Virus record (IMG/VR): IMGVR_UViG_3300034190_002630
Length of the DNA: 64,000 bases
Reading direction: 5' to 3' (one strand)
From: a virus
Below are positions 10,657 to 36,733 of this stretch, in pieces. The translations under genes were made by a program, and so were the position numbers. Within the stretch, counting starts at the first letter, position 1. Each line of letters begins with the position of its first letter. A model generated the notes under the pieces. It was not told the origin of the DNA. It was given only the letters and a program-made list of their open reading frames with translations, and did no database searches.

Positions 10657-10902
10657 ATGAGTATTCCACAGTATAAGAACGATATTGGTGTACAATCCAT
10701 AGAAATTGGAGTACGAAACTTTCAATGTGTAGGAGAAACACCCCCAATGGATCATCCACACATATACTTAACAATGGGAAGTGGTATACGTAAGGTCTGT
10801 CTATATTGTAACACAGAATACACACTAAACAGTAGTCTTTCACGTGAGGAGACAATACCCGAGGGTTGTTATCATGGAGAGGTAGATGAGACATTACGGT
10901 AA
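10657..10902 (+). CDS. zf-CHCC zinc-finger protein (alphaproteobacterial/NDUFS6-related)
   Basis: IEIGVxxFxCVG..PPxDHPHIYL.MG..CxYC. Confidence 0.8.
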   Translation: MSIPQYKNDIGVQSIEIGVRNFQCVGETPPMDHPHIYLTMGSGIRKVCLYCNTEYTLNSSLSREETIPEGCYHGEVDETLR

Positions 10903-11056
10903 TAGACTGCACATAGTAGGATATACGCACATATCAGGCGACTTCTTCGGTCATATTCTCAGAGTCAACGGAAAGAAAGTACAATATATACCTGTACCAC
11001 ATGTTTGCGTAAAACTTTACAAAACCCTAAGAAATATAGTAAGTAGTGTTGGTTAG
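10886..11056 (+). CDS. Hypothetical 56-aa protein
   Basis: GGAGAGG RBS; overlaps the upstream stop. Confidence 0.4.
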   Translation: MRHYGNRLHIVGYTHISGDFFGHILRVNGKKVQYIPVPHVCVKLYKTLRNIVSSVG

Positions 11057-11134
11057 AGTCTGCGGCCTATCGGCAAAAAATTTCTGAGTTTCCACAAAAA
11101 TTATCGAAAAATCCCATCGGGGCCCGAAAAGGCC

Positions 11135-11163
11135 TTGACAAAAGCCCAAACCTGTGGTATAAT
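11135..11163 (+). promoter_or_regulatory. Perfect-consensus sigma70 promoter
   Basis: TTGACA-17 nt-TATAAT with an extended TG. Confidence 0.85.
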
Positions 11164-11216
11164 AGGTTATGTGCCTGGGGGTATAGTATAGCATATCAGC
11201 GTAGTATAGTATACCC

Positions 11217-11245
11217 TTGACAAATGGTACAAACTATGATATATT
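11217..11245 (+). promoter_or_regulatory. sigma70 promoter upstream of the candidate ncRNA
   Basis: TTGACA-17 nt-TATATT with an extended TG. Confidence 0.75.
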
Positions 11246-11251
11246 AATAGA

Positions 11252-11425
11252 ATATCACAGATACATCACAGTATGTTCGAGTGATCTGTGATATACAGTC
11301 AGAGTGGCCTCATTAAGGTAGTTTGGTGGCCCACATAGTACACATAGAGCGGCTCTCAATCGCCGATAGTGTATGAAAGTTCCGAGTTCTCGGTGTGGGG
11401 TGGAAGTTGAGGCCCTCTGAACTAT
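11252..11425 (+). ncRNA. Candidate structured non-coding RNA, family unknown
   Basis: Begins 6-7 nt after the -10 box; 11-bp hairpin 11252-11294; 13-bp closing stem 11299-11312/11408-11420 enclosing nested helices. Confidence 0.55.
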
Positions 11426-11545
11426 ACATGCGACAGGTTGACACCCCGCCCTTTAGAGTAGGTGGTGGCTTGTAATCTATAAATGCAATGTAGAATCCTA
11501 CCTTTATACTGCGACATTCTGGTACCCCCACCCCCCTAAATTCTC

Positions 11546-11574
11546 TTGACAAACCCGTAGGGATGTTATATACT
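11546..11574 (+). promoter_or_regulatory. sigma70 promoter
   Basis: TTGACA-17 nt-TATACT, then GAAAGG RBS and ATG 11598. Confidence 0.8.
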
Positions 11575-11597
11575 AAAATATATCGAAAGGATAAATT

Positions 11598-11801
11598 ATG
11601 GGAAAAGTAAAAGCAATGTACATGGAACAAGAAGAACAGATTATGGAGTGGTATTATGACGGTATTACTCTTGAAAAGGCAAAACATCTAGCGGAATTGT
11701 CTTTCGGTCCTTCTGTAATACAATTAGTAGAAGAAATCTACAAATATGGTGAATCTTACTTTCTAGAGAAAGAACACTATGGTGTCGAAGAGCCTTTATG
11801 A
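11598..11801 (+). CDS. Hypothetical early protein
   Basis: Promoter and RBS present; MGKVKAMYME start. Confidence 0.7.
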   Translation: MGKVKAMYMEQEEQIMEWYYDGITLEKAKHLAELSFGPSVIQLVEEIYKYGESYFLEKEHYGVEEPL

Positions 11802-35047: not shown

Positions 35048-35825
35048 AAACATTTTCAAAGTCTTTGTTGATCACATGAATTAATGAAGATGTTTTACAT
35101 ATTTTTAGATTTGTATCACTAAGAATTAGTTGATGCCAATGAGTTGGTAAATTTTCTAAAGGCACATTATATTTTTCAATCATGTATGTTAACATTGTTT
35201 CATTATTATAAAAATATCTATCATCAATCTGTTTCACTTCATCAACTACTTTTTTAACCTCATTTAATCTATCACTAAATCTAAGTTCATCTCTAACTTT
35301 TTTATTACCACCAAATGTGCCTGTGTTCATCATCCATTCATTTTTAGGTTGACATAGTTGTGAGTACATCATATCTTTATATTGTTTTGTTTTGATTACC
35401 CAATGATATTTGTCAAGTGTTTTAATAAATGAATCTTTATCTTCTAAATCAAATCTAGATTGAACAAATCTAGGAATAGGTGTTGGAGTCATATAAGTCA
35501 CTAAACTATTGAAGTTAAATTTTTTAAATATGTTTTTATTTGTGTTTGGTATAATATCAAAATCAAGATACATTACTTCATCATAATCATCAAGATATTT
35601 TTCCCACATCTTGATTTTTTCTATATTTAAGTCATCATAATTTTTAGTCGTAAAGGTTGTTAGATTAAAATCAGCATTACAATTTTCAGCATATTTTTTT
35701 AAACCCTCACGTAATTTAGAACTAAATTTTTTAAATTGATTTGCGTTATGTAATCTTTTTTCTGTGATATCAGAAACTTCAGTTCCAATACTAAAGATTA
35801 ATCTTTTTTTCAAATCGCCAGACAT
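35034..35825 (-). CDS. Glycosyltransferase-like protein (DxD)
   Basis: YDEVMYLDFDIIP, NTG, NNET, WH, HVINK; paralogue of the adjacent gene. Confidence 0.75.
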   Translation of the reverse strand: MSGDLKKRLIFSIGTEVSDITEKRLHNANQFKKFSSKLREGLKKYAENCNADFNLTTFTTKNYDDLNIEKIKMWEKYLDDYDEVMYLDFDIIPNTNKNIFKKFNFNSLVTYMTPTPIPRFVQSRFDLEDKDSFIKTLDKYHWVIKTKQYKDMMYSQLCQPKNEWMMNTGTFGGNKKVRDELRFSDRLNEVKKVVDEVKQIDDRYFYNNETMLTYMIEKYNVPLENLPTHWHQLILSDTNLKICKTSSLIHVINKDFENVFNFL

Positions 35826-36678
35826 AATCAAATTCCTTGTTGATAGCATGAACTATTTTAGTATCTTGTGGTATATATAATTCTGTATCATAAAAATAGT
35901 GCCACTGTTTGTTTAACCATTGTATTGAAACATCATTTTCTTTTATCTTATATGAAAATATTGTTTCGTTGTCATATCCAAAAGTATCTGTTATATTTCT
36001 TGGATACATTGATTCTTTTTCGTAAACATCACTTCTTAAATAATGCATGAGATCAAACAGATTAACAAGACCATTCCAATAGTCTAATTTTTTCCAATGA
36101 TATTTATTTGCACCAATGATACCTGTATTGATAACATCACACTGAGGTGAGTATCCATTTTCTTCTAACATGGCCATCGTGTTAAAGTACTTTGCAGATG
36201 GCGATCTTATAGTGCCCTTTACCATATCTAAAGGCATATGTGTTGGTCTAATATTATTATTGTTATTATAAACAGCAATACCTTTTGATAAATCCCATGC
36301 ATCAAAAAAATTATCTTTAGTTACAGGTATCGCATCAAAATCAAGATACAATACCTCATCATAATCATGTAGATAATTATTCATAAGTTCTAATTTGTAA
36401 AAGTTTACAATGTTATACATTGTAATAAACGGATAGTGTGTTTTGAAATATTTTACATAATGTTTGAAGTTCTCATCATTCTCATGTAAAAAATAATCAA
36501 CACCTATATTATCTGCATATTGTTTTTTATTATCAACTATCTTTTGATGATGTTCTTTAAATTGGTTTTTTGTATTGATATTAGTTGGTATTTGATCCTT
36601 TTTTATGATATTTTTGTCAAAAAAATCAAGATCATCCTCAGGTATATCAATGTATAAACTATAAATTACCCTTGACAT
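35791..36678 (-). CDS. Glycosyltransferase-like protein (DxD)
   Basis: YDEVLYLDFDAIP, INTGI, DNET.FS, WH, HAINK. Confidence 0.75.
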   Translation of the reverse strand: MSRVIYSLYIDIPEDDLDFFDKNIIKKDQIPTNINTKNQFKEHHQKIVDNKKQYADNIGVDYFLHENDENFKHYVKYFKTHYPFITMYNIVNFYKLELMNNYLHDYDEVLYLDFDAIPVTKDNFFDAWDLSKGIAVYNNNNNIRPTHMPLDMVKGTIRSPSAKYFNTMAMLEENGYSPQCDVINTGIIGANKYHWKKLDYWNGLVNLFDLMHYLRSDVYEKESMYPRNITDTFGYDNETIFSYKIKENDVSIQWLNKQWHYFYDTELYIPQDTKIVHAINKEFDYVWRFEKKINL

Positions 36679-36733
36679 TTGTTATCCATGTGTGATATAA
36701 ATATACTTATAACATATTGAGAGATTATTGTCA

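Follow-up and report, generated by a model that had tools for sequence, protein, structure and literature searches.

What might a phage produce from a stretch of its genome that holds no gene and carries several strong promoters? The question is raised by positions 11057–11597 of the 64 000 nt stretch of viral DNA analysed here (IMG/VR virus record IMGVR_UViG_3300034190_002630, referred to below as the window), where the GC content is 0.427, compared to 0.331 for the whole window. An earlier note, made from the sequence alone, had singled out this island as the only long gene-free, GC-rich stretch, with no open reading frame on the + strand. This was confirmed, as the island lies in the sole run of at least 500 nt free of + strand ORFs, apart from 35048–36727 where the genes are on the minus strand, and it contains no + strand ORF of 30 aa or more. 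A minus-strand ORF (11313–11687, 124 aa) was considered as a possible gene and rejected, as the window and the related sequence L002 differ by indels of 1 and 2 nt that break all frames. Because such frame-breaking indels separate close relatives, the island is, on this comparison, not protein-coding. The only tRNA genes detected in the window by ARAGORN and Rfam were tRNA-Thr (5292) and tRNA-Ala (12040), with none in 11057–11597.

On its gene content, the window (33% GC) derives from a marine T4-like myophage that is uncultured and of the pelagimyophage type. This assignment was made because baseplate genes gp5 and gp6 are found 3–4 kb downstream of the island, and because of the identities of gp6, which is approximately 50% identical to the gp6 of Melnitz, a Methylophilales phage, and of the Pelagibacter phages HTVC008M and Mosig, versus approximately 35% for the gp6 of cyanomyophages. 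The features found in the island and directly after it are as follows.

11135–11163, + strand: promoter P1, TTGACA at 11135, 17 nt, TATAAT at 11158, with a TG extension (12 of 12 matches)
11164–11216, + strand: leader transcribed from promoter P1 (predicted from alignment A1 and lineage comparison)
11217–11245, + strand: promoter P2, TTGACA at 11217, spacer of 17, TATATT at 11240, with a TG extension (11 of 12 matches)
11252–11294, + strand: Domain 1, predicted hairpin at the 5' terminus, with stems of 11 bp and, further in, 3 bp below a conserved apical sequence (fold, alignment)
11299–11312, + strand: 5' strand of helix P1, the closing helix, with T11305 bulged; pairs with 11408–11420
11313–11329, + strand: J1/2, conserved asymmetric loop UUAAGG..G..UGG (UUAAGGUAGUUUGGUGG) (alignment)
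11330–11335, + strand: 5' strand of helix P2, CCCACA; pairs with 11394–11399
11339–11373, + strand: P3 arm, TACAC/GTGTA, an internal loop, then CGGC/GCCG with an 8-nt loop; optional in the family
11374–11381, + strand: J3/4, (U)GAAAGUU, then the invariant C that opens P4 (alignment A4)
11382–11393, + strand: P4 hairpin, CCGA, GUUC loop, UCGG (covariation)
11394–11399, + strand: 3' strand of helix P2, UGUGGG; pairs with 11330–11335
11400–11407, + strand: J2/1, GUGGAAGU, in the wider family G.U....GU (alignment)
11408–11420, + strand: 3' strand of helix P1; pairs with 11299–11312
11444–11489, + strand: conserved promoter-like block, a G/C-rich run, TTTAGAGTAGG, approximately 9 nt and an 18-mer with TATAAAT (11472–11489)
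11546–11574, + strand: promoter P3, TTGACA at 11546, 17 nt, TATACT at 11569 (11 of 12 matches); the next gene is 24 nt on
11598–11801, + strand: first downstream gene, 67 aa, with no family match

The tandem consensus promoters reported previously are present, and three near-consensus sigma-70 promoters, all on the + strand, were located. Promoter P1 is kept in every related lineage that retains the upstream sequence, and its leader includes conserved non-coding sequence (11164–11195) of the TATG..TGCTGGGTATAGTAT type in which no reading frame is conserved. A long-range pairing between the G-run of this leader and the C-rich run at 11524–11536 was rejected, as both are low-complexity G/C sequence and there is no convincing covariation. 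The predicted start for promoter P2 is at approximately 11251–11253, and AACCCTTGACA at this promoter is kept in all lineages of the P3 class, to which the window belongs. Promoter P3 is conserved in L002. Islands of the P3 class occupy a fixed genomic place, 0.8–3 kb upstream of the genes for a 235–256-aa protein, a 2OG-Fe(II) oxygenase and gp5, and homologues of the 67-aa downstream gene come after the island in six lineages.

As judged from its predicted fold, the segment 11252–11420 encodes a + strand RNA of approximately 170 nt, in which a 5' hairpin is followed by a domain where an asymmetric loop leads to a 6-bp helix and on to a three-way junction. The window has one copy of this RNA. 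Most of the architecture described in the earlier note was recovered. The perfect 11-bp hairpin placed at the start for promoter P2 (stem 11252–11262/11284–11294) begins 7 nt past the −10 hexamer, and the closing stem (11299–11312/11408–11420) has 13 bp and one bulged T. The nested helices CCCACA/TGTGGG, TACAC/GTGTA and CGGC/GCCG also stood, but the fourth, given as CCGAG/CTCGG, is a 4-bp helix (CCGA/TCGG with a GTTC loop), not 5 bp. The + strand fold of 11252–11425 (−58.3 kcal/mol) was better than that of shuffled controls, a comparison proposed in the same note (z = −3.0, one of 200 shuffles as good). For a single sequence this is only moderately better than shuffles, and it is the comparative data that lie far beyond chance. 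In the window, no terminator was found after the folded domain and no T-run follows the 3' strand of helix P1.

Relatives were collected in several ways. A neighbouring protein was used to fetch contigs with islands that are 98% and approximately 80% identical, and the latter has compensating changes in every helix while its loops and junctions are fixed. A pattern composed of the junction words alone yielded a third lineage, and a metagenome scan with a pattern for the 3' core yielded 30 loci. Alignment A3, containing 25 distinct domain sequences including that of the window, was the basis of a covariance model (R1). Weaker matches to R1 were found just upstream of the 18-mer in unrelated-looking contigs that had been fetched without the use of any motif pattern. 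Short-form members lack the P3 arm but keep helix P1, UUAAGG..UGG, helix P2, GAAAGUU, P4 and the 3' strands, and helix P2 covaries in them (GCCUCA/UGAGGC, CUCACG/UGUGAG). A short-form pattern recovered 77 stretches, of which approximately 55 are real. The phage type was checked for two short-form contigs; L178 has a gene for plastocyanin, which is cyanophage-type, and in L157 there are genes for ribonucleotide reductase. The family, drawn from IMG/VR and ocean metagenomes, covers approximately 100 contigs of uncultured marine T4-like phages, with 62 distinct sequences. In every scan some part of the core was invariant by construction, though that part differed by scan and members found only with the model agree with the rest. 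The joint alignment of all 62 sequences (A4) was fitted to the model and hence leans towards it.

The predicted RNA of the window fits the family definition, namely helix P1, UUAAGG..UGG, helix P2, an optional P3, GAAAGUU, P4, the 3' strand of P2, G..GU and the 3' strand of P1. Its score against R1 (96.4 bits, E 2e-19) is circular, the window being one of the 25 A3 sequences behind the model, so the independent support is the covariation. RNAalifold applied to a plain MAFFT alignment of the 25 sequences recovered P1–P4 unaided, with 27 pairs of which 14 are changed on both sides. In the hand-drawn structure (P1–P4, 23 pairs), 95.0% of 536 cells pair, compared to 34–52% when the 3' partners were slid by 1–3 columns. 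The covariation score for the same 25 sequences was 0.605 versus 0.05–0.13 for slid partners, and none of 500 column shuffles reached the observed paired share or score. In the 62-sequence alignment 93.9% of cells pair (40–51% when slid). The MAFFT-based figures are the cleaner evidence, because the larger alignment leans towards the model. Compensatory changes in homologues, to which the earlier note had looked as a check on its proposal, are clearly present, with two-sided changes in 17 of the 22 modelled pairs across the 62 sequences. Approximately 40 cells hold G-U or U-G pairs, and each of these would turn into an A-C mismatch if the opposite strand, or a DNA cruciform, were the folded form. 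These cells, together with the orientation of the promoters, assign the structure to the + strand RNA.

The extent of variation differs between the parts of the domain. All seven modelled pairs of helix P1 covary across the 62 sequences, and its length ranges from 9 to 14 bp. Helix P2 is near-invariant, yet four of its six pairs covary in rare variants (GCCUCA/UGAGGC, CCCAGA/UCUGGG, CGCACG/UGUGCG). At the base of P3, 3 of the 5–6 pairs covary, and the arm is cut to a hairpin of 3–6 bp in other lineages and is absent from the short class. In P4, three of four pairs covary. The UUAAGG of J1/2, a loop that was outside the metagenome search pattern, is invariant bar one UUUAGG. The sequence GAAAGUUC is found in 60 of the 62 rows of A4 (the exceptions are AAAGUUC in L127 and GAAGUUC in L091); its conservation is partly forced by the search patterns, though members from the 18-mer scan and those found only with the model carry it too. 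Four additional invariant pairs between J2/1 and J1/2 were proposed by RNAalifold and may also form. Altogether, approximately 35 positions are near-invariant across the family. A consensus for Domain 1 was obtained within the subgroup of the window (four sequences), where both sides are changed in three of the ten stem pairs and a C-G pair is replaced by U-G, while MAFFT/RNAalifold gave none across all subtypes. The RNA family is very probably real.

The family appears to be previously undescribed, although its kind, a phage structured non-coding RNA or leader, is already known; no relative was found. Rfam 15 scans, at gathering and E-value thresholds, of the window and of L048, L104, L061, L091, L024, L121 and L116 returned only tRNAs and noise, for example RAGATH-9, whose 20 bits fall short of its threshold of 75. 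The statement that the RNA could not be matched to tRNA, tmRNA, SRP, RNase P or a ribozyme was thus borne out by Rfam 15 and ARAGORN. Neither program found a tRNA or tmRNA in the island, whereas the Melnitz tmRNA and glutamine aptamer, used as a control, were found by the same tools. There was also no match to a known riboswitch aptamer family in E-value scans with Rfam 15 of the window island and three other members, or to the hammerhead, twister, twister-sister, pistol, hatchet, HDV-like and glmS models. A blastn search of 50 697 isolate phage records with six members found none, bar one spurious 44-nt match to a gokushovirus. R1 found nothing in HTVC008M or in two Melnitz phages, each scanned as a whole genome, and two exact core patterns, both strict, gave no match in 185 579 prokaryote species genomes. 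With filters off, R1 found nothing on rnaC/rnaD (70908–71171) in T4 68000–75000, where the best match (E 1.4) was elsewhere. The papers on pelagimyophages, Melnitz and cyanophages describe only CfrI, PhotoRC-II, wcaG, the glutamine riboswitch and tmRNA, and not this RNA. Several short words in the RNA resemble the 16S 3' end, the complement of the anti-Shine-Dalgarno (UAAGG), the L11-binding region of 23S (AGGAUGUUG) and RNase P (GAAAGUCC). These resemblances were put down to chance, as they are short and either not conserved in the family or in a different structural context. A CsrA site (AAGGAUGU, in one subgroup) was rejected because its GGA is not conserved and is GGU in others.

The position of the RNA relative to its promoter was compared across the family. 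A promoter (TTGACA, 16–18 nt, 17 in nearly all, TAnnnT) is found within 200 nt upstream in 52 of the 62 members, and two more end at a contig edge. Three classes can be distinguished by the distance from the −10 to helix P1. In 22 compact members it is 10–18 nt and the RNA would start at helix P1. In the P3 class it is 55–74 nt and the 5' hairpin comes first, while in the third class (120–165 nt) another structured module comes first. Among the 23 P3-class rows in which a promoter was matched, 21 have the 55–74 nt spacing; in L143 it is 44 nt from a poor match (TTGATA, 16, AATCAT). When 16 P3-class leaders were folded, the 5' hairpin was predicted from approximately +2 in 15, the exception being L143, which has no credible promoter match. 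The 22 compact members fill the whole 5' UTR of small early genes, for membrane proteins or lipoproteins, without a terminator, and in the 13 where a Shine-Dalgarno–ATG pattern matched, the domain ends 14–21 nt ahead of it.

What follows the RNA also varies. The downstream genes do not belong to one family, and in other members promoters, tRNAs or RNA modules come next. A run of at least four T follows helix P1 in 11 of the 62 members, including L164, where a T7 run is directly followed by a tRNA. There are tRNA genes after the island in L038, L064 and L133, and in L048 the motif is followed by a tRNA-like element, with a T-arm and an acceptor strand ending in ACCA, that was not called by ARAGORN or Rfam. 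At the syntenic spot in Melnitz there is an early promoter and the conserved block and no such RNA. Because Melnitz keeps both at this site without the RNA, the RNA is, on synteny, an accessory insertion behind an early promoter.

The general suggestion that the island gives rise to an early phage non-coding RNA behind a consensus promoter is supported by the covariation and the promoter position. As to what it does, the reading we tentatively favour is that the window RNA may be made early and in abundance, be protected at its ends and bind one specific partner. From the promoter geometry, host sigma-70 RNA polymerase would make the RNA early, from promoter P2 and by read-through from promoter P1, and the transcript would begin at the first bases of the 5' hairpin. 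The paired ends would protect an abundant early RNA; in Escherichia coli, 5'-terminal stem-loops stabilise transcripts. The approximately 35 near-invariant nucleotides (UUAAGG..UGG, CCCACA/UGUGGG and GAAAGUUC) could provide a specific binding surface for a single partner (a small ligand, or a protein of the host or phage), which the RNA would titrate or scaffold. The RNA may remain attached as the 5' part of the early transcript, or it may be freed by processing, like the stable RNAs of the T4 tRNA cluster. This reading is favoured because promoters P1 and P2 feed the RNA and promoter P3 separates it from the next gene, because the 5'-terminal hairpin covaries and the closing helix is long, because islands are shared with tRNAs or the tRNA-like element (L038, L064, L133, L164, L048), and because the RNA is an accessory module with no single gene family attached. 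The T-runs after helix P1 in 11 members, including the T7 ahead of the tRNA in L164, likewise point to a dedicated RNA product. Against it are the lack of a terminator after the domain in the window, the 22 compact members that look like cis-acting leaders, and the heavy conservation of the junctions and helix P2, a pattern more usual in riboswitches and ribozymes than in RNAs that act as protein decoys.

The main rival reading is a cis-acting leader, which might be a riboswitch-like metabolite sensor, a put-like element that alters the transcribing polymerase for read-through into delayed-early genes, or an aid to stability or translation. We consider this possible but doubtful. The element lies directly behind a near-consensus sigma-70 promoter in the 52 members noted above, in the 22 compact ones only 10–18 nt past the −10, and in 13 of these it stops 14–21 nt ahead of the Shine-Dalgarno/ATG of a small membrane protein or lipoprotein gene. 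Its build is also aptamer-like, with variable helices, approximately 35 fixed nucleotides and an optional peripheral arm. Glutamine riboswitches are found in early non-coding islands of related phages (PMC9004378), and pelagimyophages are without the T4 early-to-middle regulators (PMC7029224). However, there is no conserved expression platform, and sequestration of the Shine-Dalgarno site by the 3' strand of helix P1 was rejected, as the site is unchanged when the strand changes (L162 versus L163). The length and stability of helix P1 would be unusual in a switching helix, the downstream genes are mutually unrelated, and the RNA and the next gene are separated by another consensus promoter in the window and in L038. 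The motif was in no cellular genome under the two exact patterns, and T-runs right after helix P1 in 11 members fit an antiterminator badly. It is less likely that the RNA represents a new class of aptamer or catalyst confined to phages, be it a riboswitch, a ribozyme or an aptamer without a platform that is over-produced from tandem consensus promoters and sequesters a host protein or a nucleotide used in signalling or defence. The last of these would explain the aptamer-like conservation, the absence of a platform, the protected ends, the accessory distribution and the absence from cellular genomes, and if true it would be an RNA counterpart of the protein 'sponges' used in host takeover or counter-defence.

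A new self-cleaving or processing ribozyme that cuts an early precursor, for example freeing itself from the adjacent tRNA or mRNA, is improbable. The small core, in which many junction nucleotides are invariant while the helices vary freely, the restriction to phages, and the precursors common to tRNAs and the tRNA-like element would suit one, and small ribozymes are common beside phage tRNAs. On the other hand, no Rfam ribozyme family was matched at E up to 5–10, inspection revealed no hammerhead, twister, pistol, hatchet or HDV core, and in the short class there is nothing upstream of helix P1 that would need removal. The earlier note had loosely likened the RNA to 6S, on account of a long closing stem with an internal bubble, and suggested a decoy for RNA polymerase or a protein. 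A long closing helix with a large conserved internal loop, a strong early promoter, and phages without AsiA/MotA-type takeover proteins (PMC7029224) would be in keeping with a 6S-like decoy of RNA polymerase holoenzyme, but the resemblance did not hold up, with the wrong shape and size and no match to a Rfam 6S model at the gathering threshold over the window or at E up to 10 over 10900–11700. In the family consensus the closing helix leads through an asymmetric loop to the 6-bp P2 and then to one or two hairpins, which is not a rod. The span closed by helix P1 is only 67–73 nt in short forms, so it is not a rod of approximately 180 nt with a central bubble and is too small to mimic an open promoter, and the loop is strongly asymmetric (14–17 versus 8–10 nt) and sequence-conserved, unlike 6S bubbles. 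A 6S-like decoy is hence very improbable. Slighter still is the chance of an element acting as DNA, either an origin of replication primed by transcription or a genome-end signal, as strong promoters placed in tandem in an island without genes, and phased A-tracts upstream, might suggest. Promoter transcripts do serve as primers at oriF and oriG of T4. Here, however, the helices pair via G-U intermediates that are workable only in the + strand RNA, the cumulative GC skew of the window has no turning point around 11 kb, and the short forms sit inside ordinary 5' UTRs.

The closest parallels to an end-protected early RNA are the T4 RNAs rnaC (species 1) and rnaD (species 2), structured RNAs of approximately 120–140 nt in a non-coding island beside tRNAs, with which they are co-transcribed, and still unexplained. 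The tRNA-like T-arm at the end of rnaC is comparable to the tRNA-like element after the motif in L048. They are not homologous, and unlike them the new RNA is found at the 5' start of a sigma-70 transcript and has a highly conserved core. In Melnitz and Mosig, the early-promoter island contains a permuted tmRNA and a glutamine riboswitch (PMC9004378). These are likewise Kyanoviridae-like marine myophages in which a consensus early promoter is followed by several hundred nucleotides of structured RNA and then an early gene, but the tmRNA and glutamine aptamer are missing here and the place in the genome is different. Other marine phage aptamers (the glutamine/glnA RNA, PhotoRC-II, wcaG, manA) are also small domains in 5' leaders with a variable P1 and conserved junction nucleotides. 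There is no sequence or structure match to them, and no conserved platform, consistent gene family or cellular homologues were found for the new RNA. The put RNAs of HK022 are two simple stem-loops of lambdoid phages that act in cis in processive antitermination. They too are folded RNAs just downstream of early promoters, whatever the downstream genes, but there is no sequence relation and some members of the new family have a T-run directly after helix P1. With 6S RNA the new RNA would have in common a closing helix with an internal loop and the high expression expected, while it differs in shape and size, matches no 6S model and has an asymmetric, sequence-conserved loop.

T4-type phages resembling pelagimyophages and cyanophages are among the most abundant ocean viruses and are without the T4 proteins that reprogram host transcription. 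A conserved structured RNA at the start of early transcription is a candidate for an RNA-based step in takeover, sensing or processing, a status it owes to its strong conservation, its position in the early transcript and its absence from cultured phages and Rfam. Should it turn out to be a riboswitch, ribozyme or sponge RNA of a new type, viruses would be the only source of that class known to date. The 62-sequence alignment and the covariance model are a sufficient basis for in-vitro tests and for the mining of metatranscriptomes.

The conserved promoter-like block downstream of the RNA (11444–11489) is a separate feature with a single copy in the window, and 34 of the 62 family members have it within 400 nt. 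It was considered as an ordinary late promoter and rejected, as the structural genes of the window are preceded by plain TATAAATA without the flanks of the block, and a hairpin inside the 18-mer was set aside because it is not conserved. A literature search by the 14-mer TCTATAAATGCAAT of the block, rather than by the words of the RNA motif itself, did not find it. Exact copies of the 18-mer (11472–11489) are present in 98 IMG/VR stretches, five of which yielded further lineages of the island, and Melnitz has a near-exact copy of the block with one mismatch in the 18-mer.

Several further elements were noted outside the structured RNA. Those in and around the gene-free island are as follows.

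Window 11060–11113: box opening the island, followed by A/T runs
Window 11164–11195: conserved part of the P1 leader, the first ~30 nt transcribed from promoter P1
Window 11429–11435 and 11510–11516: the word TGCGACA, also seen ahead of the P1 -35 hexamer in each of the related loci L038, L052 and L057
Window 11444–11489: conserved block of ~45 nt, also at 2527–2583 of L020, from the cultured Methylophilales phage Melnitz

In the block, a run of G or C precedes TAAAACTGRG (in the window TTTAGAGTAGG); about 8 nt further on comes an 18-mer with TATAAAT inside. The exact 18-mer is carried by 98 viral stretches in IMG/VR, and the isolate Melnitz has a copy with one mismatch. A start codon or tRNA usually lies 20–35 nt 3' of the block, which occurs once in the window and is distinct from the plain TATAAATA sites found there ahead of structural genes. 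The CTAAAACTGR part occurs four times in the forward orientation in Melnitz, versus none in the control. The spacing of the block is suggestive of a bipartite promoter belonging to a special class. TGCGACA repeatedly adjoins promoter -35 regions, both in the island and in related lineages, and may be a regulator-binding box.

On the upstream side, the island begins with a conserved box, CTGCGGCC..CGGCA, and A/T runs; in the window, three roughly phased A-tracts come next, upstream of P1. This region may be what remains of a terminator, or else an upstream element of curved DNA. The P1 leader is kept as non-coding sequence of the type TATG..TGCTGGGTATAGTAT, with no conserved reading frame across the lineages compared. 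Its G-run might pair with the C-rich stretch at 11524–11536, but the case for this is unconvincing.

In three loci with the short form of the RNA, which has no P3 arm (L157, L163 and L164), a small gene lies directly upstream, and its 3' end overlaps the promoter of the RNA. The C-terminus encoded by this gene (..LEKDGYI.TKK...ELIPIKD) resembles a winged-helix DNA-binding protein.

Two further structured elements were found in the related contig L048.

L048 3888–3942: second structured module, also in L148 and L167
L048 4123–4216: tRNA-like element

In several contigs the second module occurs together with the main motif, on its upstream or its downstream side. It comprises a GAGAGAC...GUCUCUC stem around UUCUGGAG, a hairpin and CUAG, and has no Rfam match at the gathering score. 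The tRNA-like element, called by neither ARAGORN nor Rfam, combines an acceptor-like stem of 6 bp with a T-arm whose loop reads UUCAAUU, and its ACCA end is encoded; a long irregular hairpin stands in place of the D and anticodon arms. The element is similar to the tRNA-like 3' end of the stable RNA rnaC of phage T4, and related copies are present in L104 and L061.

Downstream of an early promoter, Melnitz carries a permuted alphaproteobacterial-type tmRNA and, after it, a glutamine riboswitch aptamer (PMC9004378). This order was confirmed using Rfam and ARAGORN (7964–8447 of L146, also from Melnitz). The aptamer lies 3' of the tmRNA and 5' of a gp33-like gene, and its regulatory target may therefore be that gene, not the tmRNA.
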